The translations under genes and the position numbers were made by a program. Of a stretch of 64,000 nucleotides of DNA, positions 10,311-37,500 are shown piece after piece. Within the stretch, counting starts at the first letter, position 1; each line of letters opens with the position of its first letter. The stretch is from an uncultured cyanobacterium (GTDB taxonomy: Bacteria > Cyanobacteriota > Vampirovibrionia > Vampirovibrionales > JAGQHJ01): NCBI GenBank assembly GCA_937922745.1, contig CALAJO010000006.1, positions 8,095 through 72,094 of the forward strand, written 5' to 3'. The notes below the pieces were generated by a model. It was given only the letters and a program-made list of their open reading frames with translations. It did not search any database and had not been told where the DNA came from.

Positions 10311-10315
10311 TGTCG

Positions 10316-15481: not shown

Positions 15482-15521
15482 TACGCTATATAAATTACTC
15501 GACAGGCTCGAAAGCGTCATC

Positions 15522-16121: not shown

Positions 16122-16160
16122 GGTCGGTACTCCAAGTTCAACCATAAACCTGCAAACCTT

Positions 16161-16197
16161 AAAACCTCTTATCTTTTTGGATAAGAGGTTTTTTATG
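16161..16197 (+). terminator. Rho-independent terminator
   Basis: Hairpin aacctcttatc / gataagaggtt followed by ttttat. Confidence 0.5.
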
Positions 16198-16214
16198 TCC
16201 GGAAGTCTGAAGCG

Positions 16215-20084: not shown

Positions 20085-23000
20085 CCCTGACGCAGGCGCA
20101 ACAGCAAGCTGCTTATACGCTCGCCAGCGTGGCGGTGACTGCCGGGGCCGGCACCGGCAAGACCCATATGCTGTCTGAGCGATACCGGTTTCATATCGCG
20201 GAGCAGGGGTTAAGACCGCTACAGATTGTGGCGGTGACGTTTACGGAAAAGGCGGTGGCTGAACTGAAAGCCCGCATCCGATCCAACCTGCTGGGGCAGA
20301 TGCCGGGACAGGCTACCCTAATGGCTGAGTTGGAGGCGGCCCCTATCTGCACATTTCATGCCCTTTGCGCACGAATTTGCCGGGAGCATCCCCAAGAAGC
20401 CCAGGTCCCGCCCGATTTCGAGATCCTTGATGACCTGGAAAGCCAGGTTTGGTGGGCCGAGCAGTTAAACCGGGCGATGGATAAGCTTCCCCCGGAAATT
20501 TATGAGAAAATCCCTTTTACCCGGCTTCACGATGCGTTAAGCAGGTTTCTGGCGGATCCGCTGACCGCGCGGCAAGCCTTGGCGCATGGATCGGAAAGCT
20601 GGCCGGCCATCATCTCTTTGGAGCGCCAACTGGCGGAGACGCGCCTGCTGAAGAGCCGTGCGTGGCTTGATGCCCTTATTGCGGTGACGGAGTATGCCGG
20701 GCAGCCGGAGGACGCCCTGGAGCAAAATCGGCAGACCGCGCTGGCTGCAATGACCGCTATTGAAGAAGGTAAGGAGATAACACCTTATCTGGACGCCATT
20801 TCGGGTTTGTCTTTTCGGGGCGGGAGCGTTAAAAATTGGCCGGGCGGTGGATTTGATATCGTCAAAGCGGCGTTAAAGGCGCTTCGCGACAAGGTTAAAG
20901 AAGCCCAGAGAAAAGGCTTGATTAACCTGGCGCTGGGCCCGGTGGATGAGGCGCTGGCTTCCTGCCTGCCATTGCTGAAGGAGGCCTTTGAGGCCGTTGA
21001 CACGATGATTGGCGAGGCAAAGCGGGAGAAGCGGATGCTGGATTATGCCGACCTGGAAGTCCATGCCCTGCGTGCGCTGGAGAACCCCGCTGTTTGCGAT
21101 TATTATGCCCGGCGCTGGAAAGCCTTTTTGATTGATGAATTCCAGGACACCAACCGGGTTCAGGCCGAATTGTTGTCCCGGTTGTGCGGCCAGGCCATCG
21201 TCACCATTGTGGGAGATGAAAAACAGTCGATTTACGGCTTTCGACGCGCCGATTTGCGTTGCTTCCAGTCCTTCCGGGAGCGTATCGCGGAGGCTGGCGG
21301 AGAAGCGGTCTCGATTGCCCTAAGTTTTCGCACCCATCGGCAGTTGGTAGAGGCGATGAACAGCACTTTCCAGCCCTTATTAGGATCCCTCTTCTCTCCG
21401 CTGGAGGCAGCGCGCCGGGAAACGCCGCATGCGGGCCCCCACTTGCGGGCTTATGTGCTGGAAGCCGACACGTCAACACGCCGCGCCGAGCGCTTGCAGG
21501 CGGAAGCCCGGATGATAGCCGGCCTGGTGGATGGGATGCTGACAAGCGAGCTACCGGTCTTCGACAAGCAGTTGGGCAGCCTGCGCCCTATTCGTCCCGG
21601 GGATATCGGGATTCTTTCGCGCACCTGGCAACCGCTGGATTGCTATGTGGACGCCCTCCAGACCCGTGGCGTCCCGGCCATGCATGCCGGTGGAGGCAGC
21701 CTGCTGGATACGCGGGAGGCCAAGGACGGCGTTGCCCTTGTTCGCTTCCTGGCGGATGCGTCGGATAATCTGGCGCTGGCGGCCCTGTTACGTAGCCCGT
21801 TTTTTGCCGTGAGCGACCAAGCGCTTCAGCGCTTTGCTGCGGGACTGCCTAGGGGAACATCCTGGTGGGCCTGCCTGCGACAAATGGAAACCGTCCCGCC
21901 TGAACTCCAACGGGCCAAGGCGGTTTTATCCGAAATGCTGGCCTTGCGGGCTGTACACCCTCCTTCGCGTCTGCTGCAATGGATGGATCGTTTGACCGGC
22001 TACACCGCGGTTATTGCGAATTTGCCTAACGGCTTGCGGCGGGAAGCTGACTGGCGCGGCTTTTGCGATCTGATAGGCATGCTGGAGACCGGGGCGGCCG
22101 ATCTGTTCTCCGTGATGCGACGGCTCAGGCAACTAATGGCGCAGACGGTGGAGATTCCCCGCTTGCCGATGGAGCCGGATAACGCCGTTTCCCTGATGAC
22201 CATCCATGCGGCCAAGGGGCTGGAATGGCCAATCGTTATCGTGCCGGATTTAACGCGGCGATCCGCTCCCGACAACCAGCCGTTGCGCCTGCATCCCGAG
22301 CTGGGCGTGGGTCTCAAGTTGTCGATGGATGAGGATGACGAGACGCTGCAAAAGCCCGCGATTTACAGCATCCTGGAGTGTCGCCATCGGGAGGAGCGGC
22401 ACGACGAGTTGAAACGCCTGCTTTATGTGGCCCTGACCCGCGCTCGCGATCAAGTGATCCTGACTGCGCCGGATGAAAAAGGCGAAGCGTTGGAGCTGCT
22501 TCGGGACGGTCTGGCGGCTGCCGATGTCCCGATTGAGGTGGTGACGCTGCAATCGCTGGATGCACAGGATGACGGGAAAGTCCCTGCGCGTCAGGATGCG
22601 ATTGCCGCCACGCTCCTTCAAGGCACGGCTTCCAGCGGATTGACCGAGTTGCCCGTAACGGCCATTACAGAGTTTGCCACTTGCCCCCAGCGGTTCCGCT
22701 TTGCCTACATTGATGGACATCCCGGGCTTCAGTCCCTCGTCGGCGAATCGGCTTTTGCCGCCCGCGTTGGTTCCCTGGTGCATCAGGCGCTGGAACTTGA
22801 CTTGCGGGAGCTGAAGGCGCTACGTGCGCTCGATCCCGACCTGCCTTTGGGAGCGGTCAAGGAAGCCCTGCAGTTAATCGAGGATTTCGATACATGTGAA
22901 GCGTTTGCCCCGTTCAGAAAGCCCTATTTCCAGCGTGAAGTCCCCATCAGCCTGGATATCGCTGCGGCAGGGCAGAAACTCTATCTTAACGGCGTTATCG

Positions 23001-23293
23001 ATTTGATGGGCGACGATTTTGTGCTGGATTACAAGTCCGATCGGGAGATGGCGCCGGAACACCATCGCTTACAGCTTTGGGCTTATGCCCGCGCCACAGG
23101 TCGCAAGCAGGCCCATATTGCCTATATCCGCCATGGGCAGGTGCATACCTTTAGCCCGTCGGATTTATCTGCTGCGGAATCGGAGGCAACCGCGATTGCA
23201 TGCAGCATCTTGTCCGGTCAGTTTCAGCCCGCGCCGGATGCCAGGCATTGCAGCTTCTGCCCGTACCACGCCATTTGCGAGGATAAAGCATAG
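20081..23293 (+). CDS. addA: AddA/RecB-type UvrD-family helicase with C-terminal PD-(D/E)XK nuclease
   Basis: Walker A AGAGTGKTHML with UvrD motifs, a C-terminal nuclease (IDLMGDDFVLDYKSD) and a Cys motif (CSFCPYHAIC). The ATG overlaps the addB stop in an ATGA arrangement. Confidence 0.8.
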   Translation: MTLTQAQQQAAYTLASVAVTAGAGTGKTHMLSERYRFHIAEQGLRPLQIVAVTFTEKAVAELKARIRSNLLGQMPGQATLMAELEAAPICTFHALCARICREHPQEAQVPPDFEILDDLESQVWWAEQLNRAMDKLPPEIYEKIPFTRLHDALSRFLADPLTARQALAHGSESWPAIISLERQLAETRLLKSRAWLDALIAVTEYAGQPEDALEQNRQTALAAMTAIEEGKEITPYLDAISGLSFRGGSVKNWPGGGFDIVKAALKALRDKVKEAQRKGLINLALGPVDEALASCLPLLKEAFEAVDTMIGEAKREKRMLDYADLEVHALRALENPAVCDYYARRWKAFLIDEFQDTNRVQAELLSRLCGQAIVTIVGDEKQSIYGFRRADLRCFQSFRERIAEAGGEAVSIALSFRTHRQLVEAMNSTFQPLLGSLFSPLEAARRETPHAGPHLRAYVLEADTSTRRAERLQAEARMIAGLVDGMLTSELPVFDKQLGSLRPIRPGDIGILSRTWQPLDCYVDALQTRGVPAMHAGGGSLLDTREAKDGVALVRFLADASDNLALAALLRSPFFAVSDQALQRFAAGLPRGTSWWACLRQMETVPPELQRAKAVLSEMLALRAVHPPSRLLQWMDRLTGYTAVIANLPNGLRREADWRGFCDLIGMLETGAADLFSVMRRLRQLMAQTVEIPRLPMEPDNAVSLMTIHAAKGLEWPIVIVPDLTRRSAPDNQPLRLHPELGVGLKLSMDEDDETLQKPAIYSILECRHREERHDELKRLLYVALTRARDQVILTAPDEKGEALELLRDGLAAADVPIEVVTLQSLDAQDDGKVPARQDAIAATLLQGTASSGLTELPVTAITEFATCPQRFRFAYIDGHPGLQSLVGESAFAARVGSLVHQALELDLRELKALRALDPDLPLGAVKEALQLIEDFDTCEAFAPFRKPYFQREVPISLDIAAAGQKLYLNGVIDLMGDDFVLDYKSDREMAPEHHRLQLWAYARATGRKQAHIAYIRHGQVHTFSPSDLSAAESEATAIACSILSGQFQPAPDARHCSFCPYHAICEDKA

Positions 23294-23937: not shown

Positions 23938-24588
23938 CTATTGCGGCGGGTCGGCCAAGAGCTTGGCTTCAACAGGTCGAACGGCCACAAAGCCGGAGTA
24001 AAACAGCTCGACCGCATGCGGCTTGGCAAATTGCACTTTTACTTCCGGCATTTTTCCGAATGGGATCAGGGTAAGCGTCGAGAATGTGTGATTGGTCGGC
24101 AGCGTCCCGGCAGGCAAGGTATTGGAGAAGTCGCTGGAGGCTTCGCGGGCCTTGGAGTTGGCATTGGCGCGCTTCACCGTGTTCCCCACAATGGCGGTGA
24201 TACCTAAAAAGCTTGCCGGGCTTACCAGGCTGCGTTTTACATCCTCAAAGGCGGTTTTGCCATCCACCCCGTTTCCAATTTGGATACTTGTAATTTCCAC
24301 TGGATGCGGGCCTTGGTTCATTACTTTGACCTCAAAGCCGGTATATTTGCGCACGAACAGATCCGAATCGACTTCGACCGGCAAAATGGATACCAGAACG
24401 ACAGAGTGATTCGATTCCGCTTCCGCCTGGCGAACCTCTTCCGGATCCGCTGCCGTGGGGAAGATGGATTCGTAGGCCGGGATAAAACTGTGTGTGCCGG
24501 ATTGCGGCTCTGGCTCGTTCGCGGCGGCAGGCAAAGCCGTTGCCGTTAACATAGTTGCCAATAGTAACCGCGCGATGGAAGATTTCAT
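23938..24588 (-). CDS. Secreted hypothetical protein
   Basis: Signal peptide LLLATMLTATALPAAA. No recognisable domain. Confidence 0.5.
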   Translation of the reverse strand: MKSSIARLLLATMLTATALPAAANEPEPQSGTHSFIPAYESIFPTAADPEEVRQAEAESNHSVVLVSILPVEVDSDLFVRKYTGFEVKVMNQGPHPVEITSIQIGNGVDGKTAFEDVKRSLVSPASFLGITAIVGNTVKRANANSKAREASSDFSNTLPAGTLPTNHTFSTLTLIPFGKMPEVKVQFAKPHAVELFYSGFVAVRPVEAKLLADPPQ

Positions 24589-24665: not shown

Positions 24666-26876
24666 TCATAATTTCACGTCGCGCAGGTAGCAATGCAGGG
24701 CGTCTTCCAGCGGGGTCATCAGTTGGCCGCGCTCCGTGCCCAGGGCGCTATATAAGGGGCGCTTGGCGATAAACTGCATCTCTTCGCACGGGATGCCCAC
24801 CACTTTTTTGGAGTCCATACCGGACATCTGGGCCGCGAGACGGGCAAAGTCCGCCCAGGAAACCTCGCACGGATTGGTAATGTGCCAGATGCCGGACTCG
24901 CCGTCAATCAGGAGATCCAGCGTCGTGTTTACGAGATCCGGCACGTAGGTTGGGGAAATGATGGTGTCCTCGGCAGCCTGGAAGGGCTGGCCGGACTGGA
25001 TGCGCCGCAGGGCGATGGTGATGAAGTTAAAGTCGTCCCACGGCCCAAAAAAGGAGCTGGTGCGAATCACCAGGCTGGTGGGCAAAATGTCTAGAACCTT
25101 CTGCTCCGAAGCCGCCTTGGTTTCTCCATACACGTTCAACGGGCGCATTTCGTCGCTTTCCAGGTATGGTTTTCTCGCGCTGCCGCAGAACACCAAGTCC
25201 GATGAGAAGGTGACAAGCGGGATATTTAAGTCAGAGCAGGCTTTGGCCAGGTTTGCGGGGCCGGTTACGTTGGCCAGCCAGCAGATATCCTTTTCGTTTT
25301 CCGCGTCATCCACCCGCACATAACCGGCCGCGTTGATGACTGCCCAAGGCCGCAGCTTCGCCAGGCGCTGCCCCACCAGTTCCGGGGTGGAAATATCCAT
25401 ATGGGCGCGGCTCAACAGGTAATAAGGAATCCCGCGGATATCGCACATGCGGGCAAACGCTTTGCCCAACGTGCCATTTGCCCCCACAATCACGATGGGC
25501 CGAATCCCGATATGGCATTCCTGCGTGAGTTCACAGTTTTCCGTAATGCTGACGGCATGGCATGTTTTCTCCGCGCGGGAAGGGTAAAACACGCGGTCTT
25601 CCCGCCGCCACCAGCCTTCCTTGTCCAGGATGGGATGATCCGGCTTTTCACCGGTGGCATAGGTTTTAATCAGTTGCGCCAGGGCGGTGGGCCTGGGCTT
25701 GCTCCCGCGCATATCAAACACGCCAGGCTCATAGAACCCGTTGTCCTTGGTGACCAGGCAGTTCCAATCGTAAGCCCCCAGCAGCGACCAAGCGGTGACG
25801 GCCACCACCGGAACCCCTTCCTCTCGTAAGCATTCGGCCGCATCCCAGATTTCCTTCAGCCAACGGAGCTGCTCATCCCGGGTGCAGCCCAGGTGGGCTT
25901 CCGTTACGGCGACAGGCAGGCCGTAGCGCTCATAGGTTTCCTTCAGCAGGGTGCGATGGCCCGCATAGTCCTGTTGATGCACGCGGATGGCCTCGACATC
26001 GGCATACTGGTGCTTCCCGTTCCCGCCATGAAATTGCGGCGGGTAGCAGTCCATATTCTCGTCCAGGAAGCGATCGCTGGTGAGGTAGTGGTTAATCCCC
26101 ACCACGTCCGGCGGACAGGGATTGTTAAGAAACCAGTTGAGCGCTTCCACGCTGGCGCCGCAACTTAGCAAATATTGCCACATGGGCTTGTCCGGCGTCA
26201 GCTTGCCGCAAAGCAGGTCGTACGTCAACCAACGGCGCTCGTTCTCCAGGTCCGCCTGATATTGCAGAAGCGGTGTGCTGTAAACTTTCCCCAGGTCATC
26301 CGTCTGGATCAGCTTGGCATCGGGGTTCACTTCCCGAATGGCTCGCATGGCCAGCACCGTGCCCTTGCACTCGTTGAGCAGCGCCGTCACAAAGGTCTGA
26401 TCATCACGCCCATGGGGATACCAGTGGCCGTACATGCCACTAAACCGCGCCGTGGTCAAAGGTTCATTTACGGGTGTATAAAACTCAAGCCAAGGGTAAC
26501 GCCGGGCGACGGCCCCGGCATATTCGGCCAGTTTCTTCGGAAACGCCGGATCGACCAGGCTGGTTGACATGGGGCCGCTGCCATGATGCACCAGGCCTGC
26601 AATCGGGTTGATTCCCAGCTCGCGAAGCCTTGGCAAGCGTTCATCCAACCAGGACCAATCGGCGTTCTCAATCCCGTTGGGTGCGGTTCTCTCCCAGATG
26701 ACCGGGTAGCGAATGACCTTGATGCCCAATTCCGCAATCATATCCAGGTCGCTGATGCGGTAGGCATGACCATTGCGCGCCAACTGATCATAATACCGAT
26801 CGCCAACCCGGTTGACGGTACATTCGATTCCTGCCCACATTTGCAGTGGAACTGCCTGACTACTACGCATATTCAA
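24666..26876 (-). CDS. Fusion protein: N-terminal GH1-like (clan GH-A) glycosidase domain plus a C-terminal RmlD-like NAD(P)H-dependent sugar reductase domain
   Basis: N-terminal half has acid/base NEP (YTPVNEPLT), nucleophile-like VTEAHL and an FxW..DxFxW-like tail. C-terminal half has IVIVGANGTLG ... YGETKAASE ... SPTYVPDL, typical of dTDP-4-dehydrorhamnose reductase. Confidence 0.7.
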   Translation of the reverse strand: MNMRSSQAVPLQMWAGIECTVNRVGDRYYDQLARNGHAYRISDLDMIAELGIKVIRYPVIWERTAPNGIENADWSWLDERLPRLRELGINPIAGLVHHGSGPMSTSLVDPAFPKKLAEYAGAVARRYPWLEFYTPVNEPLTTARFSGMYGHWYPHGRDDQTFVTALLNECKGTVLAMRAIREVNPDAKLIQTDDLGKVYSTPLLQYQADLENERRWLTYDLLCGKLTPDKPMWQYLLSCGASVEALNWFLNNPCPPDVVGINHYLTSDRFLDENMDCYPPQFHGGNGKHQYADVEAIRVHQQDYAGHRTLLKETYERYGLPVAVTEAHLGCTRDEQLRWLKEIWDAAECLREEGVPVVAVTAWSLLGAYDWNCLVTKDNGFYEPGVFDMRGSKPRPTALAQLIKTYATGEKPDHPILDKEGWWRREDRVFYPSRAEKTCHAVSITENCELTQECHIGIRPIVIVGANGTLGKAFARMCDIRGIPYYLLSRAHMDISTPELVGQRLAKLRPWAVINAAGYVRVDDAENEKDICWLANVTGPANLAKACSDLNIPLVTFSSDLVFCGSARKPYLESDEMRPLNVYGETKAASEQKVLDILPTSLVIRTSSFFGPWDDFNFITIALRRIQSGQPFQAAEDTIISPTYVPDLVNTTLDLLIDGESGIWHITNPCEVSWADFARLAAQMSGMDSKKVVGIPCEEMQFIAKRPLYSALGTERGQLMTPLEDALHCYLRDVKL

Positions 26877-26958: not shown

Positions 26959-29400
26959 TTACCGGCTTGGTGCCAGCGCCGCCTGGGTTGCAGAAGCCGT
27001 TGCAGCCGGCTTGCTGGCAACCTTCTCGCCCTTGATGTGCTTGAAGAGCGTTAAGGCCTGGGCCACAACCTGATCCATGTTGTAGTACTTGTACGTGGCC
27101 AGGCGTCCTACGAAGTAAACGTTGGGAAGCGCATCCGCCAGGGCCTTGTACTGGTTATAAATGTCGGCATTTTCCGGCTTTGGGATGGGATAGTAGGGAT
27201 CCCCTTCCGCGCGGGAGTATTCGTACACGATGCTGGTTTTCTCGTGCTTTTGCCCCGTCAGTTGCTTGAACTCCGTAACGCGCGTGTAATCGTTATCGTT
27301 CGGGTAGTTTACCACGGCCACCGGCTGATGCACTTCCTTGTCCAGCGTCTCGTGCTTAAACTCCAGCGAGCGGTAAGGCAGCTTGCCGTAACGGTAGTTG
27401 AAGAACTCATCGACCGGGCCGGTGTAGATAATCTTGCGATGGGGAATAATGCGCAGGATTTCCCGGTAGTCCGTGTTCAGCATAATTTTGATGTTGGGGT
27501 GGGACAGCATGTTCTCAAACATCCGGGTAAATCCGTGGAGCGGCATGGCTTGGTAACTGTCCGTAAAATAGCGGTCATCCGTGTTCGTCCGGGTGGGGAT
27601 TCTCGCGGTCACGCACTTGTCCAGTTCGGAGGGATCCATGCCCCACTGTTTGCGGGTATAGCCTTGGAAAAACATCTCGTACAACTCCCGCCCGACGGTG
27701 CTGACCACAACGTCTTCGGAAGTCTTGATCACGTCTATCTGCTCCGCCTTGGAGGCCAGGAAGTCCGCGACGCCCTGCTCGTCAAGGTTCAGGTTATACA
27801 GCTTGTTAATCGTGGTTCGGTTAATCGGGATGGGAACCAGTTGGCCGTCCACCTGTGCCAGCACGCGGTGTTCGTAATCCCGCCACTCGGTAAAGCGCGA
27901 GAGGTAATCGAAAACTTCCTTGGAGTTGGTGTGGAAGATATGTGGGCCGTACTTGTGTACCAGGATGCCATGATCATCGTAGTGGTCGTAAGCATTCCCG
28001 GCAATGTGCGGCCGGCGATCCACGATCAGAACCTTGTTGCCGTCACTGGCAAGGCGCTCGGCCAGAACGCTCCCGGCAAACCCGGCGCCCACAATCAGGT
28101 AATCGAACGTGCCTTCTTTTGTCTGCCAGCGTTCGCGCCTGGAAACCACCTTGTGATCCTGGATATTTTTGCGGTTAAGGATGCGGTTGATATTGCCACG
28201 CATCCCGGCCCAAGTTTTATCCCAGGAGTTCTGGGAGAGAAAGGCATCGGCCCGTTGCTGCCAGTCAAGATCCGTATGGACTTCCTCGAACATGGCATCC
28301 AGTGCAGCCACAAACGCTTCAGACGTGTCGGCAATCTTCACCAGGCGCAAGGCTTCATAAGGCACCACAACGTCTTTTATGGATGTGGAGACGATGCGCT
28401 TACCCGCAGCCAGGAATTCCGGCGTTTTGGTGGGGCTGATAAACTCGGTCGATTCGTTCTTGGCAAACGGCATCATCGCCATATCCCAGCCGGAGAGGTA
28501 TTGCGGCAGCTCTTTGTAATCCTTGCCGCCCAGGTAATGGATGTTGGGCAGTTGCGGCAAGGTTGCCGGATCGATCTTGACCACCGGCCCGATGATGACG
28601 TAATGCCAATCCGGGCGTTTTTCGGCAATCTCTCTCAGCAGGTCGATGTTCAACCGCTCGTCAATCACGCCGAAGAAGCCGATACGTGGGTGTGGAATAT
28701 GGGCCTGATCGGCCGGTTCGGTTTCCACATGCTTGGCTTGCTCGAAATGCGCGACATCCACGCTGCTGGGAAAGGCATGCACTTCCGGGTGATGCGGGCG
28801 CTTGGCTTCATACAGGCTTTGCCCGCCGGTAAACACCAGGTCGGCTACTTTAAACAGGTCGATTTCCCGTTCAATCAGTTCCGGTGGTGCGCCTTTAAAG
28901 GCCGCCAACTGATCCATACAGTCGTAGACGATGGCCATGGGCTTGAGATGGGCGCTAAACGCCATTGCCATCGGCGTGTAATACCATAAAACGTATTGGT
29001 TGATATCGTTCTCGGCAATAAACTCATCCAGCAGACGTTGCTGTTCGGCTTCGCACTCTGCGGGAGAAAGGCTTTCAGGCAGGTAGGGCACGACAACGAC
29101 CACGCCTTCGTTGTTGGGATGGCTCACATGAAGCATCGGCTCCGGGTGGGTTGTGCGAATGGGCTCCTCCACGAAAAATACCCGGCGCTCCCTGGCGCAG
29201 CGGCTCAGCAGATGTTGCGGTCGCTGGAAAACAAAATTCCAGCGCAAGTGGGAAAGGCAGATCAGATCGAATTTCTGTTCACCGTCCAGCAGCGTTTCCT
29301 CGTGCATTTTATGCGTGTCCAGCTTCGCCCGAATATCGACGACAAGATGATTTTTCTGTACATCGTTGTGGTTGTTTCCACCGTTTTGGTCGTTTGTCAT
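26959..29400 (-). CDS. glf: Fusion protein: N-terminal glycosyltransferase plus C-terminal UDP-galactopyranose mutase
   Basis: C-terminal ~390 aa: FAD motif YDYLIVGAGFAGSVLAERL, then HKYGPHIFHT and YTGPVDEFF, canonical for Glf. N-terminal ~400 aa is GT-like (FFGVIDERLNIDLL, YLGG). Confidence 0.8.
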   Translation of the reverse strand: MTNDQNGGNNHNDVQKNHLVVDIRAKLDTHKMHEETLLDGEQKFDLICLSHLRWNFVFQRPQHLLSRCARERRVFFVEEPIRTTHPEPMLHVSHPNNEGVVVVVPYLPESLSPAECEAEQQRLLDEFIAENDINQYVLWYYTPMAMAFSAHLKPMAIVYDCMDQLAAFKGAPPELIEREIDLFKVADLVFTGGQSLYEAKRPHHPEVHAFPSSVDVAHFEQAKHVETEPADQAHIPHPRIGFFGVIDERLNIDLLREIAEKRPDWHYVIIGPVVKIDPATLPQLPNIHYLGGKDYKELPQYLSGWDMAMMPFAKNESTEFISPTKTPEFLAAGKRIVSTSIKDVVVPYEALRLVKIADTSEAFVAALDAMFEEVHTDLDWQQRADAFLSQNSWDKTWAGMRGNINRILNRKNIQDHKVVSRRERWQTKEGTFDYLIVGAGFAGSVLAERLASDGNKVLIVDRRPHIAGNAYDHYDDHGILVHKYGPHIFHTNSKEVFDYLSRFTEWRDYEHRVLAQVDGQLVPIPINRTTINKLYNLNLDEQGVADFLASKAEQIDVIKTSEDVVVSTVGRELYEMFFQGYTRKQWGMDPSELDKCVTARIPTRTNTDDRYFTDSYQAMPLHGFTRMFENMLSHPNIKIMLNTDYREILRIIPHRKIIYTGPVDEFFNYRYGKLPYRSLEFKHETLDKEVHQPVAVVNYPNDNDYTRVTEFKQLTGQKHEKTSIVYEYSRAEGDPYYPIPKPENADIYNQYKALADALPNVYFVGRLATYKYYNMDQVVAQALTLFKHIKGEKVASKPAATASATQAALAPSR

Positions 29401-29738
29401 TATATACTCCCTATGTTGTAGACCTTACCGTTTAGAGAGGCTGTAAAGCACAGCCCAGCTAGACCTCCCTGCATCCAGAGGCCCGGTGTGTGTTACTTCT
29501 CTTCGCTTTGATATCAAAATTTGGGTTTAATCAACACTGAAACCAATAAAAAACCAAGTCTTGATATCCTTTCCGCCTGACTGCCAGAGGAACCGGCAGA
29601 TCAAACTCTCGCGAGATTATTATGTGTGGAACAGGGAAAAAATAGATTACCCAACAAGCCAATTGATAAGGCTCATCTGGACCCTTTAGCCCGATCGGTT
29701 AATCCATCCCTTTTATAAATGTATAGAGGCGGGTGGGA

Positions 29739-30956
29739 TTACAGTTCTCGCACGCCGGATTGGGGTTGCGTAACGTAAAACGAAACCGGGTATTCGAACT
29801 GCCGGTTATATTCCATCTCCAGGGTTTGCTTGAAACCTTCCAACGCATCAATCCGAACCAGGTTGACCGTGCAACCGCCAAATCCGCCGCCTGTCATTCG
29901 CGCACCGATAACCCCGTCCAAGCCTTGCGCCAGTTCCACCAGCAGATCCAGCTCGGCGCAACTGACCTCGTAATCCAGTTGCAAGGATTGGTGTGATGCG
30001 TTCATCAGTTGTCCAAGCCGCTCGGCATCGTGGTGCTTTAAAGCTTCGGCGGCGAAAAGGGTTCGTTCATTCTCCGTAATCACGTGGCGCATGCGCTTGC
30101 GGATGGTCGGATCAGGCAGTTGCGATTCGTATCGTTCAAACGCCTGGGTGGAAATATCCCGCAAGGCGGTAATGTCCGGCATAAACTGCTGGAAAAAGGC
30201 AACGCCGTCCTGGCATTGCCGGCGTCGTTCGTTATACGCCGAAGAGGCCAGCTCATGCTTGACGCCGGAATCCACAATCACAACCGCGATTCCCGGCAAG
30301 TCCAGCGGAATGGGCGTCGCCTCCAGTGTCCGGCAATCGATGAGCAGGGCGTGGCGCTGCTGGCCCATGGCGGTAATAAACTGGTCCATAATACCGCATT
30401 TCGTGCCGACGTACCGGTGTTCTGCCGACTGCCCGGCCAGGGCCAGCTTTTTCAGGTCTATGTCTGAGTATCCATTTAGCGACAACAAGGCAAATCCCAC
30501 GGAATTTTCCAGCGCCGCAGAGGAGGACAAACCGGAACCGACCGGGACATTGCTTTCAATCAGCAGATCCGCGCCGTTGATGCGCCAGCCGGATTCCTCC
30601 AGGCTTCGGGCTTCGCCTTCCACGTAGCTCAGCCAATCGTGCGGGTGGGACTGCAACGGCCCATCCAGGCTAAACTCGCGGGTTTCCTGGCGCTCGATGG
30701 AATGCACGCGAATCTTCCGGTCTGCGCGAGATCGTCCTGCAATGAGCGTGCCCCGGTTTATCGCCAGGGGTAGCACAAAGCCATCGTTGTAATCCGTATG
30801 CTCGCCAATGAGGTTGACCCGGCCAGGTGCGACGAAAAATCGCGGCCGGGCATCCCCGAACAAGCCCTGGAACAGGTTGCCCAGGGCAAGCGCGTCAAAG
30901 CTTTCCACCAGGTTAACAGGCTGTGCTGCCGTTGATGCGGACGTTTCCATCAACAT
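29739..30956 (-). CDS. galK: Galactokinase
   Basis: Galactokinase signature PGRVNLIGEHTDYN and GHMP motif PVGSGLSSSAA. Confidence 0.9.
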   Translation of the reverse strand: MLMETSASTAAQPVNLVESFDALALGNLFQGLFGDARPRFFVAPGRVNLIGEHTDYNDGFVLPLAINRGTLIAGRSRADRKIRVHSIERQETREFSLDGPLQSHPHDWLSYVEGEARSLEESGWRINGADLLIESNVPVGSGLSSSAALENSVGFALLSLNGYSDIDLKKLALAGQSAEHRYVGTKCGIMDQFITAMGQQRHALLIDCRTLEATPIPLDLPGIAVVIVDSGVKHELASSAYNERRRQCQDGVAFFQQFMPDITALRDISTQAFERYESQLPDPTIRKRMRHVITENERTLFAAEALKHHDAERLGQLMNASHQSLQLDYEVSCAELDLLVELAQGLDGVIGARMTGGGFGGCTVNLVRIDALEGFKQTLEMEYNRQFEYPVSFYVTQPQSGVREL

Positions 30957-31016: not shown

Positions 31017-32651
31017 TTAGCCAACTGTGCCGGATACCGAACCCTGCTTTAACGAGGCCATTAAATCCGCGAAGACCGTGGTGGTAAAATTCCGCTTCTC
31101 GTAGCCGGGCCAGCTGACCATGCCCACCGGGTGCAGCTTCAGGTCCTTCGGGGAACCGGAAAGCGCATCGCCCCAGTTGAACTGATCCATCAGGCTGTAC
31201 CAGGTAAAGCCCAATACGGGAATGCCGAACTTGGGCAGTTGGGCCAGCTCCACCAGTTGCTTCATGCCCCACTCTTCGCTGCCGTGGTCGAAGAAGTTGG
31301 TTTCGGTATGCAGGATAGGGAGCTGGTAACGGTTCCAGTATTCCATGCAGATACGGGCCAGGCCTTTGCGGCGATCGGAGCGGATTTCGGCTTCGTATCC
31401 CTTCACGTCGGTCATGGTTAATTGCTCGGGATGGCCGGGCTTCACGATTTCGCACGCCATGTAGTAATCCACGCCGAAGACGGTATCGGCCTTCATGGTT
31501 TTGCCAAAGCGCCGCTCGAAGAGGATATGGTATTGCTTGATGGTTTCCAGCTCCACGATCAGGTGTTGTATATCGTCCGCCAGGTTGTCCTGACGCACGT
31601 AATGGCGCGCCATCCAGCGGTACATGTCGGTCTTCTGGAAGTCGTCCTCCAGCAGCCACTCGTGGCCCAGGATCAGGTCGCTTGCCAGGAACCGGTTAAA
31701 TTCGTTGAAGTGGAAGTCGTCCGGCTGGTGTTCGCAACTGTCGTTATGGATGAAGATGACGCGCCGGCCTTCCTCCTGAAGGTGGGCTTCAATCTCGAAG
31801 CGGGCCTTGAGGGCGGCCTTGGCAATCAGCAGCGCCCTACGAATAAAGTAGTGATCGTACTGCGGATGATCAAAGCTGCCCGGCATGGCTTCGTTCCATT
31901 TCACCGCGCTAAAGCGGTTGGTAATCATCGGCTCGTTGATGATGGTGATGGCGTCCAGCTTGGGCAGGTAGGTTTTAACGGCCTTCATCCCAAACTCGAT
32001 GAAATGGTTGGGCCAATCCGGGTTGAGAAAAACGCTTTCTTCCGGTTTCTCATCATTACGGTAAGCCGCTGGCAGGCCAAAGTGCAGCAAGTCCAGGCTC
32101 ACTTTTTTGTTGCGGGCCTTAAAGCGATCCAGGATATTGGTAAACACCTGCCAGTTGTCCTGTTCCACCATAATGTGGTTGGGCATGCCAAGGCGCACAT
32201 TCTCAATCTGGCACTCGTCCATGGCATCCAATTGGCGATCGAGGTGTTCGTCTTCGTAGATGCCGGTAAAAGCCAGCTGATCCCAACGCTCGCCTTCCGG
32301 GCTTTGCGGGTTGCTGCACTCAATCCCGGTCCAGAAGAAAGAGGAGAATGTTTCCTTGAACAGGGCAATGGTTTCCTGGTTCTCGGCGGCGCGCCGCTCA
32401 TCCGCATGGCGAACCGCGCCGTATTTTGCCTCGTTGATGTATTGGTTTTCCGGCTGGTGCAACTTTTTCTCCGCCCAGCGGTGGTAGTTGTGAATCTCGT
32501 GATCCAGTGGGGTGTCCCCAGTTGGCAGAACATTGATGTGGAGCAGATCTTCCGCGCGCTCCTCCGGCTCCACAATATGGAGGGGGGCAACGACTTGCAT
32601 TGGAATAACATTGTCCAGTGGCTTTTCAGCCTCAAACCCGCTGTGATTCAC
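31017..32651 (-). CDS. GH1-like (clan GH-A) glycoside hydrolase, paralogous to the N-domain of 24666..26876
   Basis: INEPMITNRF (acid/base) and ILHTETN (nucleophile), plus a GFTWYSLMDQFNWGD tail. Shares IECSNP/IECTVN N-terminal similarity with the fusion protein. Confidence 0.6.
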   Translation of the reverse strand: MNHSGFEAEKPLDNVIPMQVVAPLHIVEPEERAEDLLHINVLPTGDTPLDHEIHNYHRWAEKKLHQPENQYINEAKYGAVRHADERRAAENQETIALFKETFSSFFWTGIECSNPQSPEGERWDQLAFTGIYEDEHLDRQLDAMDECQIENVRLGMPNHIMVEQDNWQVFTNILDRFKARNKKVSLDLLHFGLPAAYRNDEKPEESVFLNPDWPNHFIEFGMKAVKTYLPKLDAITIINEPMITNRFSAVKWNEAMPGSFDHPQYDHYFIRRALLIAKAALKARFEIEAHLQEEGRRVIFIHNDSCEHQPDDFHFNEFNRFLASDLILGHEWLLEDDFQKTDMYRWMARHYVRQDNLADDIQHLIVELETIKQYHILFERRFGKTMKADTVFGVDYYMACEIVKPGHPEQLTMTDVKGYEAEIRSDRRKGLARICMEYWNRYQLPILHTETNFFDHGSEEWGMKQLVELAQLPKFGIPVLGFTWYSLMDQFNWGDALSGSPKDLKLHPVGMVSWPGYEKRNFTTTVFADLMASLKQGSVSGTVG

Positions 32652-32795: not shown

Positions 32796-34127
32796 TTACC
32801 GAGCGTTTGGTTCAAGCGGACTCTTCAGTACAATGATATTTCCCTTCAGGACTGCGTTTTGGGCTTTGGCGGGCGCATGCGCCGAAGACCAAAAAATGAT
32901 GCCATGATCGTAATAATTGTGGATTGCTTCTGGCATGGGAAATCCCAGGTAACCTGCGTAAATGTCGCGGACGGTGGAAATGTACTGATCCGGCCGGCCG
33001 ATGTCGCTCCAGTAAAACGGCTCCTGCAACATTTGCGCATAAATCGGCCGCTTGGGGTCGGCAGCTTCATCATGCTGGGCCAGCAGGCCGGGGAAAAAGT
33101 CCATCGCATAATCGAACTCCGGGCTGGTCTGCCATTTACGCTGCCCGGCCTCCAGGAATAACGGGTAAACCTGTGGTGACAGCACATAAAACCCGATACT
33201 GCCCAGTCGGCTTGGCCCTGCTTCCGCCAGCGTCGGCTTTTCCTTGAAGGACAGCACAAACCCGGATTCTTCATCCGCATGGCTGCGATCCGTCACGACG
33301 ATGGCCATCTGGCTCACCTGGTCATCGGAGATATGCCGCACACCAATGCTGACCAGCGGATCCTGTTGGCGATGCGCGTTTAAAAAGGCGCTTAGGTTGG
33401 CATTGGTCACGGCATCCCCCTGCATAATCAAGATGGGCTTGTCCGGGTCAATCCGGTTTTGTTCCAGCGCCTTGACCAGGCCGCCCGCCGTACCGGAGGG
33501 TTGATCTTCGTCGATATAAATAAATTCCAGCCCTTCCACGGCTGCCAGTTGCGCCTTTAAAACGTCGGGCTTATAAAAGGTATTGATGATTATTTTTCGA
33601 ATGCCGTGGGATTGGAGATGCCGGGCCAGCATCGTGATTACGGAATCTTCTCCCACCAGAGGGGCGCTGGGCTTGGAATACCCGGTGACATCGCCGGAAA
33701 CCGGCACAAATCGGCTGGCCAACCCGGCTCCCAGGATCATTGCCTGATCGGTGACGGTTTGAATTTGAGCGGGTTTTTGCGGAATCTGCGGCGAGCTGAC
33801 CCGCCCCTGGATGATATCGCCCGGCATGTCCAACTGCGTGTCGTTCAGCCGTATCTGGCTGCCGGGGAGGGCAATGTAGGTGAGCTGCCCCGTCTTGACG
33901 ATGCCAAAGAAGCCGCCTTTTTCATTAAGGAAGCGGACCTGGGTGGTGGCGTCCTCCACCTGCCGAACGGATGCCAGGATCTGGTGCGGCCCAAACCGTG
34001 TGGAGTCCGGCTCCGGGTTCCATAGCGTGGTTTTCTGCCAGCCGGGGGCATCCTGCTCGGTTCTGCCTTCCACGGCGGTTTTAACCTGGGGATGTTTTTC
34101 CAGCGTTACGGATCCGAATGTCTGCAT
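32796..34127 (-). CDS. Sugar-1-phosphate nucleotidyltransferase with ~110 aa N-terminal and ~150 aa C-terminal extensions
   Basis: NTP_transferase core MILGAGLASRF ... GTAGGL ... IMQGD. Confidence 0.75.
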   Translation of the reverse strand: MQTFGSVTLEKHPQVKTAVEGRTEQDAPGWQKTTLWNPEPDSTRFGPHQILASVRQVEDATTQVRFLNEKGGFFGIVKTGQLTYIALPGSQIRLNDTQLDMPGDIIQGRVSSPQIPQKPAQIQTVTDQAMILGAGLASRFVPVSGDVTGYSKPSAPLVGEDSVITMLARHLQSHGIRKIIINTFYKPDVLKAQLAAVEGLEFIYIDEDQPSGTAGGLVKALEQNRIDPDKPILIMQGDAVTNANLSAFLNAHRQQDPLVSIGVRHISDDQVSQMAIVVTDRSHADEESGFVLSFKEKPTLAEAGPSRLGSIGFYVLSPQVYPLFLEAGQRKWQTSPEFDYAMDFFPGLLAQHDEAADPKRPIYAQMLQEPFYWSDIGRPDQYISTVRDIYAGYLGFPMPEAIHNYYDHGIIFWSSAHAPAKAQNAVLKGNIIVLKSPLEPNAR

Positions 34128-34364: not shown

Positions 34365-35378
34365 ATGCTCTTAGTCACAGGCGGCGCAGGATACATTGGA
34401 AGCCATTTCGTAAAGACGTACCTGGATACCCATCCGCAGGCGCAAGTGGTGGTCGTGGACGACCTGTCCGAAGGGCACCGCGAGGCCTTGGCCTTTTCAG
34501 ACCGGATTCGCTTTATCCAGGAAGATATCGGCAATGTGGAGGGGATGATCCAGGTTCTGCAATCGCAGGGGATTGAGGCCATCGTGCATTTTGCCGCCAG
34601 TTGCTACGTCGGCGAATCGCAAACGAATCCCACCAAGTATTTCCAAAACAACGTCGTTAAGACGCTCAACCTCTTCAAGGCCATGGATCAGGCCGGTGTG
34701 AAGCGAATCGTCTTTTCCTCCACCTGCGCCACCTACGGCAACCCGGTGCGCATGCCGCTGGATGAAACGCACCCGCAAAACCCCATTAATATCTACGGCC
34801 TCACCAAGCTGATGATCGAGCAGGCGTTGCGCGGCTACTGCGAAACCCTGGGCTGGTCCGCGTTTGCCCTGCGCTACTTTAATGCCGCAGGGGCGGATGA
34901 GAGCGGCCTCATCGGGGAGCTGCACGACCCGGAAACCCATCTGATTCCGCTGGTATTGCGGGCGGCGCAAGGCAAGAGCAAGGCCATCGACATTTACGGC
35001 GAGGACTATGACACGCCGGACGGCACATGCATCCGCGATTATATCCACGTCACCGACCTGGCCCACGCGCACATCAAGGCGTTGGAGAAGCTGCAAGCCA
35101 GCACCGGCTTCGATGCCATTAATCTGGGGACGACCCATGGCGCGTCAGTCAAGGAGATTATCGCCATTTGCGGGGAAGTTACCGGCAAGCCCATCCCGGT
35201 CAATGTGGCCGGCCGTCGTCCTGGGGATCCGCCACGGCTGGTGGCCAACGCCGACAAGGCCTTGAACGTGTTGGGCTGGAAGACGCAGTTTGACCTGCGC
35301 ACCATCATCCGTACCGCATGGGCATGGGAAGAAGGAGGAAAGTATGCAACCGACAGGCTCACCGCTAGCCACGCTTAA
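34365..35378 (+). CDS. galE: UDP-glucose 4-epimerase
   Basis: LVTGGAGYIGSH, catalytic YGLTK and the HVTDLAHAH region. Confidence 0.9.
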   Translation: MLLVTGGAGYIGSHFVKTYLDTHPQAQVVVVDDLSEGHREALAFSDRIRFIQEDIGNVEGMIQVLQSQGIEAIVHFAASCYVGESQTNPTKYFQNNVVKTLNLFKAMDQAGVKRIVFSSTCATYGNPVRMPLDETHPQNPINIYGLTKLMIEQALRGYCETLGWSAFALRYFNAAGADESGLIGELHDPETHLIPLVLRAAQGKSKAIDIYGEDYDTPDGTCIRDYIHVTDLAHAHIKALEKLQASTGFDAINLGTTHGASVKEIIAICGEVTGKPIPVNVAGRRPGDPPRLVANADKALNVLGWKTQFDLRTIIRTAWAWEEGGKYATDRLTASHA

Positions 35379-36561: not shown

Positions 36562-36654
36562 GTTGGATTTTCATCATTTTTTATCGCACCCATTTTCTTG
36601 CGGTTGAATATGGTTTATTCTTTATTGTTCAAAATCTGGAAGAGGGGCTCGTTT

Positions 36655-37500
36655 ATGTCGACACAATCTCAATCCGCTATCCGTAACCGCTATACCGAAG
36701 CCGAAATCGAAGGTTATACCCAACAAATACTGCGGGATGGCTTTTGCATCCTGAAGGGGCATTTTCCCAAGGAGAAGCTGCAAACCTGGAAAGAGGCGTT
36801 CGATCCGTTAATGGAACAGCGGATCCAGGATGGCACGGCCTCCGAGCGGGGGCCGAAACGGTTTTACATTTCCCTGCCGTTTACCATGCCCTTTGCCGAC
36901 CCGGCCATTTACGAGGACCCCGATATTCTGGCAATCCTGGAACGTCTGGGCGGGGATATCGTGATGCCGGAGCTGGCCAGCGATACCCCACTGCAAGGAT
37001 CCGACTTCCAGGTGATCCACCGGGATCATCTGCAGATGTCGCCGGATCTGCCGGATCGTGACCCGGCCCTGCCGTTCCAGTTTGCCGTCAACTTTCCGCT
37101 GGTGGATGTGACGCTGGCGAACGGCCCGTTTGAAGTGGCCCGCGGCACCCACCTCCTCACCGATGCCGAGTGCAAGGAACGCATCCGCTCCGGGGAGATG
37201 GAGACCCAACTGGAGCCGCTGATGATGGAAGTGGGCGATGTAATGATTCGGGATGTGCGTGCCCTGCACCGCGGCACCCCCAACCACACCGAAACCCCAC
37301 GCACCATGATTGTTGTGGGCTACAACTGCGCAGAACACCAACGCCCCCAGTTAAAGATTCATATTCCCCAAGCGGAGTTTAACAAGCTCTCCGGGCGCGG
37401 GCGGCAGTTGCTTCGACTGAACCCCGTTGTGGAGTCCCTGGATGCCATCCGGCCGTCCGAAACCTACTCCAACCTCTACTTCCTGGAGGATGCGGATTAG
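36655..37500 (+). CDS. PhyH-family Fe(II)/2-oxoglutarate-dependent dioxygenase
   Basis: HRDH...(D) facial-triad region (QVIHRDHLQ) and a distal HRGTPNHT, typical of the PhyH fold. Confidence 0.65.
   Translation: MSTQSQSAIRNRYTEAEIEGYTQQILRDGFCILKGHFPKEKLQTWKEAFDPLMEQRIQDGTASERGPKRFYISLPFTMPFADPAIYEDPDILAILERLGGDIVMPELASDTPLQGSDFQVIHRDHLQMSPDLPDRDPALPFQFAVNFPLVDVTLANGPFEVARGTHLLTDAECKERIRSGEMETQLEPLMMEVGDVMIRDVRALHRGTPNHTETPRTMIVVGYNCAEHQRPQLKIHIPQAEFNKLSGRGRQLLRLNPVVESLDAIRPSETYSNLYFLEDAD

Follow-up and report, generated by a model that had tools for sequence, protein, structure and literature searches.

The fusion gene and its surroundings

In the window (the whole 64,000-nucleotide stretch of DNA that was analysed), an intact gene on the reverse strand encodes a GT-B glycosyltransferase (GT) joined in frame to a UDP-galactopyranose mutase (UGM, or Glf). 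The parts of this gene, followed by the genes around it, are listed here.

26959..29400, reverse strand: whole fusion gene, GT-B glycosyltransferase plus UDP-galactopyranose mutase; intact open reading frame of 813 aa with domain matches
29269..29400, reverse strand: variable N-terminal tail, residues 1-44; unconserved in homolog alignments A1 and A3, pLDDT below 50 over residues 1-40
28159..29268, reverse strand: GT-B (GT4-like, TuaH-like) glycosyltransferase domain, residues ~45-414
28111..28158, reverse strand: inter-domain linker, residues ~415-430; unconserved, pLDDT below 50 over residues 415-429
27031..28110, reverse strand: UDP-galactopyranose mutase (Glf) domain, residues 431-790; matches to TIGR00031, Pfam GLF, NAD_binding_8 and drUGM 3HDQ
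24666..26876, reverse strand: conserved partner of 736 aa, joining a GH1-like barrel (clan GH-A type) to an RmlD-like SDR reductase; Pfam Glyco_hydro_1 and RmlD_sub_bind
29739..30956, reverse strand: galactokinase (galK); TIGR00131 score of 389 bits (cut-off 227); galK lies near GT+UGM in many relatives
31017..32651, reverse strand: divergent stand-alone GH1-like barrel, 544 aa, paralog of the partner barrel; weak Pfam GH1 match
32796..34127, reverse strand: sugar-1-phosphate nucleotidyltransferase, 443 aa, with an N-terminal extension of ~125 aa; Pfam NTP_transferase, E=9e-25
34365..35378, forward strand: UDP-glucose 4-epimerase GalE, divergently transcribed; TIGR01179 score of 413 bits (cut-off 262)
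36598..37500, forward strand: PhyH-like Fe(II)/2-oxoglutarate dioxygenase, possible accessory gene; Pfam PhyH, E=1.6e-14

The reading frame begins with ATG, preceded at 6 nt by a Shine-Dalgarno-like GGGAG motif, and continues without interruption for 813 aa. The identical protein is recorded in several sources and independent assemblies, including an independent Logan assembly contig, and more than 120 homologs of ~780-860 aa have the same Pfam architecture and align to 92-98% of its length at 63-70% identity. Furthermore, a stop between the two halves is absent in 44 of 90 related loci, which come from many phyla. Thus, the in-frame fusion proposed in the first-pass annotation is genuine, and the hidden frameshift or stop that would have separated the domains is excluded by the identical independent records and the full-length homologs. 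That the gene is a pseudogene, or two genes merged through faulty sequencing or assembly, has a probability close to nil, being ruled out by the independent records, the stop-free loci, and the strong conservation of both halves. The domain boundaries were mapped to residues ~45-414 for the GT and 431-790 for the canonical Glf, with a linker of ~16 residues between them, and both motifs quoted earlier were found in place, namely GAGFAG (G438-x-G440-x-x-G443) and HKYGPHIFHT (residues 482-491). The N-terminal tail is probably disordered, judging from the structural model.

The partner gene downstream recurs with the fusion. Its RmlD-like part matches RmlD from the PDB (3SC6; E=8e-34), and in 53 of the 90 loci GT+UGM has a GH1-like gene nearby, mostly directly downstream. 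In this partner, the N-E-P and T-E glutamates of the barrel are invariant in all 48 orthologs compared (48/48), as are the GxxGxxG and YxxxK motifs of the reductase (35/35). Barrels homologous to its GH1-like domain are elsewhere fused directly to the window-type GT family. The stand-alone 544-aa barrel shares 23% identity with the same domain (E=3e-11) and has an ortholog, 62% identical, at the same position in another locus (L003).

The remaining neighbors concern galactose and its nucleotide sugars. The 443-aa nucleotidyltransferase matched no NCBIfam model at its cut-off, and it may convert Gal-1-P to NDP-Gal; in an 'Actinomycetota' MAG locus, GalT stands in place of the window-type nucleotidyltransferase. 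An SDR epimerase accompanies GT+UGM in Nostoc, Cystobacter, and locus L003, and galK occurs in other lineages together with GalT and/or an SDR epimerase, as a UDP-Gal supply. PhyH homologs (37-52% identity) lie within a few kb of GT+UGM (10 kb in locus L015) in 12 cyanobacterial loci. The window cluster contains no GT2- or GT111-type gene, no polyprenyl-phosphate GT, and no polymer-export genes, and no teichuronic-acid genes were found near the fusion gene. Promoter and terminator scans of the cluster gave sites no more frequent than in shuffled sequence; Rfam models had no match in the cluster, the sole match in the window being a TPP riboswitch elsewhere, and a tRNA search found none.

The mutase and transferase halves

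The C-terminal half scores 391.4 bits against TIGR00031 (cut-off 303.75), with residues 432-788 covering model positions 2-375 of 378, and 266.6 bits against Pfam GLF (PF03275; E=1.8e-79, cut-off 26.3); an NAD_binding_8 match (E=1.3e-18) also falls within the Glf domain. The FAD-binding GxGxxG motif, GAGFAG at residues 438-443, is invariant across 54 fusions. The alignment to Deinococcus radiodurans UGM (drUGM; 3HDQ) is almost free of gaps (E=2.5e-185), and the 12 residues that we take to be the drUGM substrate-binding set (F175, F176, Y179, T180, W184, R198, Y209, R305, Y335, R364, Y370, and N372) are all identical in the window protein. The window equivalents R600, R707, Y581, W586, Y611, Y737, Y772, and N774 are invariant across 54 fusions. 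By these sequence measures, the C-terminal half is a bona fide canonical prokaryotic UDP-galactopyranose mutase.

The N-terminal ~400 aa score 32.6 bits against Pfam PF13692 (Glyco_trans_1_4; gathering score 27) and only 16.5 bits against PF00534, below its 26.4. The best-scoring named family is the model for TuaH (NF047676), a teichuronic acid glycosyltransferase of Bacillus subtilis, which is matched over nearly its whole length by residues 121-400; at 85.3 bits, far under the equivalog cut-off of 550, TuaH is a distant relative, and membership of that family was rejected. A sequence search of the PDB with the GT half returned nothing at E<=1, so a comparison of folds was needed. The GT half was modelled confidently as a GT-B protein of two Rossmann-like domains, with nucleotide-sugar-dependent transferases as its top fold matches. 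R239, K275, and E328, assigned by motif position as the expected nucleotide-sugar binders, are invariant in 87 orthologs. An invariant SHLRW-x-FV-x-QRPQH motif stands in place of the glycine-rich first loop, and the canonical GT4 E-x7-E motif is out of register, with E/D316 and E328 (placed by motif position) being 12 rather than 8 residues apart.

The characterized bacterial galactofuranose (Galf) transferases named in PMC12269835 belong to GT2 (GlfT1, GlfT2, and PamC) or GT111 (WbbM and PamA); GlfT2 and PamC are shown there to form beta linkages. No Glycos_transf_2 or other GT2/GT111-type domain was matched in the GT half by Pfam at E<=0.01. The 'glfT'-type identity implied by the first-pass annotation was therefore not borne out, the fold being GT-B/GT4-like and not that of the characterized GT2/GT111 enzymes (PMC12269835); the GT half is unrelated to the known Galf-transferases. 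It shares only 10-17% identity with GT-B enzymes of the GT4 type (sucrose-phosphate synthase, BshA, MshA, PimA, HepE, and PglA), and we know of none among these that uses a furanose donor or is fused to a mutase.

The linker between the halves is short (~16 residues) and polar in the window protein. Measured between fixed anchors in 43 fused orthologs, it has a median length of 25 aa (range 8-52) and an unconserved sequence. The full-length AlphaFold2 model (pTM 0.46) gave no confident inter-domain geometry, with the UGM half being poorly modelled from a shallow 54-sequence alignment; physical channelling between the halves is thus unsupported. Split units being about as common as fused ones also points to co-localization or matched stoichiometry as the role of the fusion, not to an obligatory tunnel.

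Fused and split units across phyla

The GT+UGM unit, fused or split, occurs in at least 592 species-representative genomes from about ten phyla. Of the 90 loci examined, 44 carry it as a fusion and 46 as two adjacent genes, with at least five fused/split transitions on a quick tree. Fused forms are found in Nostocales, Sphingomonadales, Azospirillum, and others; adjacent separate genes are found in Cystobacter, Phormidesmis, Blastocatellia, Deinococcus, and Mesorhizobium. In S. meliloti, the pair is located on pSymA. The earlier expectation that mutase and transferase are usually separate proteins holds for characterized systems, as in Kingella, where the mutase PamB is separate from PamA and PamC (PMC12269835), and in Salmonella, where the mutase STM0719 is separate from WbbN and WbbO (PMC11294581), but it does not extend to nature at large, where both arrangements occur in hundreds of species; nor, on these counts, is the fusion rare. 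Identity to the window protein across phyla is 51-68% for the GT and 66-78% for the UGM, and since the two halves are about equally conserved, both are under purifying selection.

GTs related to the window family at about 45-49% identity have been fused independently to a second mutase lineage, that of the eukaryote-type UGMs (A. fumigatus 3UTE; T. cruzi 4DSG). The C-terminus of one such protein, P0327, matches 3UTE at E=2.8e-49; P0310, P0316, and a 1236-aa protein of Pantoea are likewise bacterial GT plus eukaryote-type UGM fusions. These are analogous to the window protein, although their mutases are ~500 aa in length and of the Amino_oxidase/PRK07208 type, unlike the classical prokaryotic Glf of the window. 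Overall, the comparative genomics argues strongly that this GT and UGM are functionally linked.

Of the solved structures, drUGM (3HDQ; DR_A0367) is closest to the C-terminal half, and it belongs to the same GT+UGM module. An upstream gene, which overlaps the drUGM gene by 8 nt, encodes a 361-aa GT that is 54% identical to the window N-terminal half, so that drUGM represents the split form, and it was found studied only as an isolated mutase, whereas the window protein is fused. In Deinococcus geothermalis, the pair stands alone, and the flanks examined in D. radiodurans and Mesorhizobium contain no further annotated GT; in these pairs, therefore, there would be no other locally encoded user of UDP-Galf.

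Among the split loci, 43 of 46 have both genes in the same frame with one stop between them. This excess was put down to selection bias, as the finder ranks single tblastn alignments highest, and programmed read-through was rejected; of four split loci found by other routes, only L006 has the genes in the same frame, and L007, L008, and L010 do not.

Proposed function and alternative readings

With a probability of about 0.6, the protein is a bifunctional enzyme whose UGM half makes UDP-Galf and whose tethered GT-B half transfers Galf to an acceptor. The C-terminal flavoenzyme domain would interconvert UDP-galactopyranose and UDP-galactofuranose in the cytoplasm, and the N-terminal domain would take the UDP-Galf made beside it and hand galactofuranose on. 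Because UGM at equilibrium strongly favors the pyranose form, a consuming transferase tethered 1:1 would pull the reaction forward and keep the labile donor local. UDP-Gal would be supplied by GalE from UDP-Glc and by GalK plus the nucleotidyltransferase from free galactose, and the GH1-like barrels and the RmlD-like reductase would act on the product or the acceptor. UDP-Galf as the donor, the direction of flux, and the roles of the neighbors are what we infer, the donor from recurrent fusion or adjacency with two UGM lineages. The pair probably points to an undescribed pathway for making molecules that contain galactofuranose.

The same layout is seen in known loci, in which UGM is encoded beside a presumed UDP-Galf user (Glf/GlfT2 in M. 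tuberculosis; PamB/PamA/PamC in Kingella; Glf/WbbN/WbbO/WbbM in Klebsiella and Salmonella). Those systems, however, have a separate mutase and GT2/GT111 enzymes and make beta-Galf in lipid-linked surface polymers, whereas the window has a fused GT-B/GT4-like enzyme, accompanied by a GH1-like barrel and an RmlD-like reductase in place of the polymer genes of galactan and O-antigen loci. That the Galf linkages shown in PMC12269835 are beta and the characterized enzymes named there are GT2/GT111 counts against the bifunctional Galf-transferring enzyme, as does the E-x7-E motif being out of register; the catabolic-looking neighbors (GH1-like genes, GH2 or GH43 in relatives, and galK) also point against it and would fit degradation.

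Those neighbors also enter a reversed, catabolic reading. Here, UDP-dependent cleavage of a galactofuranoside by the GT-B half would yield UDP-Galf, which the fused UGM would convert, thermodynamically downhill, to UDP-Galp for the Leloir pathway, and the GH1-like, GH2, GH43, and GalK proteins would process the remaining substrate. Sucrose synthase and TreT, both structural neighbors of the GT, can operate in reverse, but catabolism needs no UGM, as free Galf released by a hydrolase equilibrates spontaneously to the pyranose. Moreover, the Deinococcus and Mesorhizobium loci consist of GT+UGM only, with catabolic genes and sugar transporters absent from the flanks examined, and the fusion gene has no sugar-uptake transporter next to it in the window. 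In Azospirillum, the gene after the pair carries the annotation ABC transporter ATP-binding protein; it may belong to an exporter, and this would hint at synthesis of a product. Together, these points make the catabolic direction distinctly improbable. A slightly better, though still poor, chance is given to a GT that uses another donor, such as UDP-Galp or UDP-Glc, for a primer or neighboring residue of a Galf glycan; the true Galf-transferase would then lie elsewhere, or the GH1-like barrel would act as a transglycosylase, and the fusion would serve co-regulation or complex formation only. Indeed, the closest structural neighbors of the GT all use pyranose donors, WaaG having been crystallized with UDP-galactose; in Klebsiella-type galactan systems, the addition of Galp is predicted to fall to a GT distinct from the Galf-transferase (WbbO and WbbN; PMC11294581); and the fusions of GH-A-type barrels to the window-type GT family would suit a transglycosylase. 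A GT consuming UDP-Galp, however, would compete with UGM for its substrate, leaving no reason for repeated fusion, and the independent fusion of two UGM lineages, together with the pair-only loci whose examined flanks hold no other annotated GT, argues that the GT needs the UGM product. The absence of a GT2- or GT111-type gene from the window cluster speaks against this donor choice as well.

A more specific version of Galf transfer is offered tentatively, as a speculation likelier to be wrong than right. The GT-B family may be an unrecognized class of galactofuranosyltransferases which, given their GT4-like character, would be retaining and make alpha-D-Galf, within a cytoplasmic, phylum-spanning pathway in which the GH-A-type barrel and the RmlD-like reductase help in building, and perhaps trimming or recycling, one particular Galf-glycoside, either a small metabolite or a glycolipid. 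Such a product, and not a variable surface polymer, would fit the GT being unusually conserved across phyla (51-68%). The origin of alpha-D-Galf linkages is described as unclear in the literature (PMC3520571).

In the literature searched, no description was found of a GT-UGM fusion, a GT4-type Galf-transferase, or a GH1-RmlD fusion, and no study of the D. radiodurans GT partner or its biological product; for the D. radiodurans UGM itself, the finds were limited to structural entries and a single passing mention in a transcriptomic study. A paper on UGM and horizontal transfer in tunicates proved unrelated. The Nostoc cluster is mentioned in passing as 'galactose/polysaccharide metabolism' (PMC2900214), and dr_A0367 appears in a transcriptome table (PMC7022480).

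Beside GT2 and GT111, the family is a third, structurally unrelated transferase family tied to UGM, and the tie is of the most compelling genomic sort, namely repeated fusion, with two UGM lineages and in hundreds of species. Galactofuranose, a rare form of galactose with a five-membered ring, does not occur in mammals, and the pathway that makes it is a target for drugs and diagnostics. If Galf transfer is correct, an unstudied Galf branch would exist in environmentally dominant groups, including cyanobacteria, Acidobacteriota, Bacteroidota, Sphingomonadales, rhizobia, and Deinococcus; it may also explain alpha-Galf synthesis and would give the D. radiodurans UGM a biological context. Many of the carriers (Deinococcus, Hymenobacter, Nostoc, Microcoleus, Pyrinomonadaceae, Sphingomonas, and rhizobia) appear to be soil- or stress-associated. 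The impression of a link between GT+UGM and stress or desiccation comes from the names of the taxa and a single Mesorhizobium neighborhood, and no support for it was found in the literature searched. Fusions of ~800 aa are annotated as 'UDP-galactopyranose mutase' only, which hides the transferase half.

The fusion protein and its two halves

The gene at 26959-29400 (-) was found to be a single ORF that begins with ATG and runs uninterrupted for 813 codons; a GGGAG motif is located 6 nt ahead of this start. In alignments of 15 and of 54 full-length fusions, the two halves are about equally conserved, whereas the N-terminal tail and the linker vary.

Layout of the fusion protein (residues)
1-44, variable N-terminal tail
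to ~414, glycosyltransferase (GT) half
about 415-430, variable inter-domain linker
431-790, gene on (-) strand, UDP-galactopyranose mutase (UGM, Glf) domain; TIGR00031, Pfam GLF, NAD_binding_8

The C-terminal half is, as judged from its sequence, a textbook UGM, the enzyme interconverting UDP-galactopyranose and UDP-galactofuranose (UDP-Galf). It covers the whole TIGR00031 model (391 bits against the curated NCBIfam cut-off of 304), matches Pfam GLF (E=1.8e-79) and NAD_binding_8 (E=1.3e-18), and carries GAGFAG at 438-443 and HKYGPHIFHT at 482-491, the motifs for which the first-pass annotation had called it a canonical Glf; the call is upheld by an alignment, with almost no gaps, to the crystallised Deinococcus radiodurans UGM 3HDQ (E=2.5e-185). 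The residues that we take to be the substrate-binding set of 3HDQ—F175, F176, Y179, T180, W184, R198, Y209, R305, Y335, R364, Y370, and N372—are all identical in the UGM half. Furthermore, the gene of the crystallised enzyme is overlapped by 8 nt by that of an upstream GT of 361 aa, 54% identical to the N-terminal half of the window protein. The bacterial UGM with the best-known structure is thus a member of a GT+UGM module, in its split form.

The N-terminal ~400 residues, described earlier as GT-like, score above the Pfam gathering threshold for Glyco_trans_1_4, with a distant match to the TuaH model (85 bits; cut-off 550). Modeled alone with 49 stand-alone homologs, this half yielded a confident prediction (pLDDT 91.8, pTM 0.87) in which it adopts a GT-B fold, the top Foldseek neighbors being MshA, SPS, PimA, HepE, and BshA; the earlier description is thus borne out. 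R239, K275, and E328, at positions expected to contact the nucleotide sugar as in other GT-B enzymes, are invariant in 87 orthologs, as is an unusual first-loop motif, SHLRW-x-FV-x-QRPQH; the E-x7-E spacing is not preserved in its canonical form.

The fusion had been proposed with the proviso that an overlooked frameshift or stop might separate the two domains. Such an interruption is excluded: independent sources record the same protein sequence, which was also read on an independent Logan assembly contig, and more than 120 homologs of 780-860 aa (63-70% identity, 92-98% query coverage) share the domain architecture. An artefactual origin of the fusion is accordingly extremely improbable, and the original observation is confirmed.

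Fused and split forms

The arrangement, at first considered unusual, is not rare, which lessens the surprise of the fusion as such. When one genome was scanned for each species, at least 592 contained a relative; the best 80 belong to Cyanobacteria, Acidobacteriota, Bacteroidota, Chloroflexota, Myxococcota, Gemmatimonadota, Actinomycetota, Chlorobiota, and Alpha- and Betaproteobacteria. The pair, fused or split, occurs across many of these phyla; GT and UGM are fused in 44 of the 90 loci compared and split in 46, in a sample biased toward same-frame neighbors by the way the locus finder ranks matches. The window copy adds one member to a family that is widespread and uncharacterized.

Searching with the GT half also returned many stand-alone GTs of 400-460 aa (60-66% identity), with a separate glf directly downstream in Cystobacter fuscus, Phormidesmis priestleyi, and a Blastocatellia MAG. 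A neighbor-joining tree of GT+UGM, built without support values, requires at least five changes between the fused and split states, with fused clades in Nostocales-type cyanobacteria, Proteobacteria, some Chloroflexota, Gloeobacterales, Gaiellaceae, and the window protein with its closest relative, GCA_041697335.1. On plasmids and chromids, both halves were found in 107 records (as a fusion in Azospirillum and Gloeothece and as separate genes in Deinococcus and Skermanella), and the GT half alone in 147, rhizobia and Pantoea among them.

The two halves share a reading frame, with an intervening stop, in 43 of the 46 split loci and in only one of four split loci found by other routes; since the finder puts single tblastn alignments first, this excess most likely reflects selection bias rather than programmed read-through. 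Split pairs were also seen on rhizobial symbiosis or accessory replicons, namely Mesorhizobium ciceri pMc1192 (L093) and S. meliloti pSymA (L094). The former adjoins a manganese catalase, a DUF1206 gene, and a 'phage holin family' gene, with a GH1-like gene on the opposite strand. This neighborhood presumably resembles that of stress-response genes, a hint that the rhizobial pair may be under stress regulation.

Measured between fixed anchor points in 43 fused orthologs, the linkers run from 8 to 52 aa with a median of 25 aa; they are polar in composition and show no sequence conservation. The full-length model is poor (pLDDT 67, pTM 0.46): pLDDT stays under 50 in the linker and N-terminal tail, a shallow alignment left the UGM half under-determined, and the model is neutral as to a fixed interface between the domains. 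With a flexible, unconserved linker, and split forms about as common as fused ones, strict channeling of UDP-Galf, as put forward in the first-pass annotation, is not supported; its interpretation of the fusion stands in part.

Gene neighborhood, partners, and predicted role

Genes around the fusion
32796-34127 (-), sugar-1-phosphate nucleotidyltransferase, first in minus-strand order
31017-32651 (-), very divergent stand-alone GH1-like barrel, 544 aa, ~100-aa N-terminal extension
29739-30956 (-), galactokinase (389 bits, cut-off 227)
26959-29400 (-), fusion gene, between galactokinase and GH1-RmlD genes
24666-26876 (-), GH1-like barrel plus RmlD-like NAD(P)-dependent reductase (GH1-RmlD), 736 aa, directly downstream of the fusion gene
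34365-35378 (+), bona fide GalE (413 bits against 262), divergent to the minus-strand cluster
35290-36561 (+), 423-aa ORF, no family match; 57% identical ortholog at the locus of the closest relative
36598-37500 (+), PhyH-like dioxygenase; homologs recur near the GT+UGM module in cyanobacteria

The gene order in GCA_041697335.1 is the same. In Nostoc punctiforme, a GH1-RmlD gene and an SDR epimerase come after the fusion, and galK and PhyH lie a few kb before it; in 2010 this region was described simply as a 'galactose/polysaccharide metabolism' cluster (PMC2900214). Downstream of the Azospirillum fusion are genes annotated as 'beta-glucosidase' and as the ATP-binding protein of an ABC transporter; Deinococcus geothermalis and Mesorhizobium have the GT+glf pair only. 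A GH1-like gene (at least 49% identity) lies near GT+UGM, mostly directly downstream, in at least 53 of the 90 loci—a lower bound, as many contigs are cut. GH1-RmlD recurs downstream of the GT-UGM gene in several phyla. Both domains of GH1-RmlD look catalytically competent from their invariant motifs, the N-E-P and T-E glutamates in 48 of 48 orthologs and the SDR GxxGxxG and YxxxK in 35 of 35.

With the GT half as query, an exhaustive HMMER search gave 1,803 representative clusters at E<=1e-30, among which are two further kinds of fusion. In some proteins, the GT is followed by a ~500-aa flavoprotein of the other, eukaryote-type UGM lineage; one of these, P0327, matches the A. fumigatus UGM 3UTE (E=2.8e-49) and NCBIfam PRK07208 models. 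In others, of ~800 and ~1270 aa, the GT is preceded by a ~400-aa domain that is homologous (E=4e-13 and 5e-14) to the GH1-like barrel beside the window's fusion gene and keeps the candidate catalytic glutamate motifs; a three-domain protein of this type in Pantoea is labeled 'FAD-dependent oxidoreductase'. As fusions link GT, UGM (of either lineage), and a GH-A-type barrel in various arrangements, Rosetta-stone reasoning provides strong evidence that they function together.

GalE, and galactokinase with the nucleotidyltransferase, would supply UDP-Gal, from which the UGM domain would make UDP-Galf for immediate consumption by the tethered GT. Such coupling is thermodynamically sensible, as the UGM equilibrium strongly favors the pyranose form. 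A reverse, catabolic role of the fusion is improbable, and a donor other than UDP-Galf for the GT is also unlikely, if marginally less so. Characterized bacterial UDP-Galf transferases are of families GT2 (GlfT2, PamC) or GT111 (WbbM, PamA), PamC and GlfT2 making beta-Galf linkages and the mutase PamB being separate from the transferases (PMC12269835); the Salmonella mutase is likewise separate (PMC11294581). The GT-B/GT4-like window GT, in contrast, lacks the fold defining either family, and the module differs further in its covalent coupling and new partners.

If the GT transfers Galf, it would represent a new class of Galf-transferase and, if also retaining, a candidate maker of alpha-Galf linkages. 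Alpha-D-Galf is rare (PMC7278926), and the incorporation of alpha-Galf units is said to 'remain[s] unclear' (PMC3520571). That the GT is highly conserved between phyla (51-68% identical to that of the window) and that the window cluster is devoid of polymer-export genes suggest that the acceptor is a defined molecule, either cytoplasmic or a membrane lipid, and not a variable surface polysaccharide; a polyprenyl-phosphate transferase and a second GT are likewise absent from the cluster. A full-text literature search found no paper on the fusion or the GH1-RmlD architecture, and the ~800-aa fusions are labeled merely 'UDP-galactopyranose mutase' in databases. The module is large, strongly conserved, and unstudied, includes the partner of a crystallized enzyme, and makes directly testable the question of what makes non-GT2/GT111, possibly alpha, Galf linkages.

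Other features of the cluster and window

The nucleotidyltransferase has a ~125-aa N-terminal extension matching nothing, and no NCBIfam model reached its cut-off for this protein. At the locus of an 'Actinomycetota' MAG (L004), GalT stands in its place, which suggests non-orthologous displacement for Gal-1-P activation. The stand-alone barrel is a paralog of the GH1-RmlD barrel (23% identity, E=3e-11) with the NEP and TE(T) motifs kept, and is 62% identical in GCA_041697335.1. The gap between galK and the fusion gene (29401-29738) is unusually long (338 nt) and AT-richer, without Rfam matches or a convincing promoter or terminator; gene calling places a 78-aa ORF in the equivalent gap of the relative. 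A 216-aa protein with a signal-peptide-like N-terminus (23938-24588, -) has no family match and, among the loci examined, occurs in the window genome only.

Elsewhere in the window are the following:
17511-23293 (+), AddB-like (PD-(D/E)XK, 857 aa) and AddA-like (UvrD helicase-nuclease, 1105 aa) pair, listed ORFs overlapping by ~100 nt
41481-50340, Tad/Flp-type pilus cluster with RcpC/CpaB-like protein, 818-aa secretin, CpaE/MinD-like ATPase, and TadA-family ATPase
55496-55610 (+), TPP riboswitch (Rfam RF00059, 71.5 bits, gathering score 54.3), upstream of or overlapping a 200-aa ORF at 55560-56162

The G+C content of 2001-17000 is lower (45-53%) than that of the rest (53-60%). Two large ORFs at 1833-3758 and 4124-6040 (~640 aa each) have no NCBIfam match at E<=1e-10. 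On a single marker, the window most likely derives from a member of Vampirovibrionia, non-photosynthetic relatives of cyanobacteria: the RpoD-like sigma factor within the low-G+C segment (6097-7146) has its nearest named matches, at up to 80% identity, in Vampirovibrio chlorellavorus and Vampirovibrionales/'Melainabacteria' MAGs.
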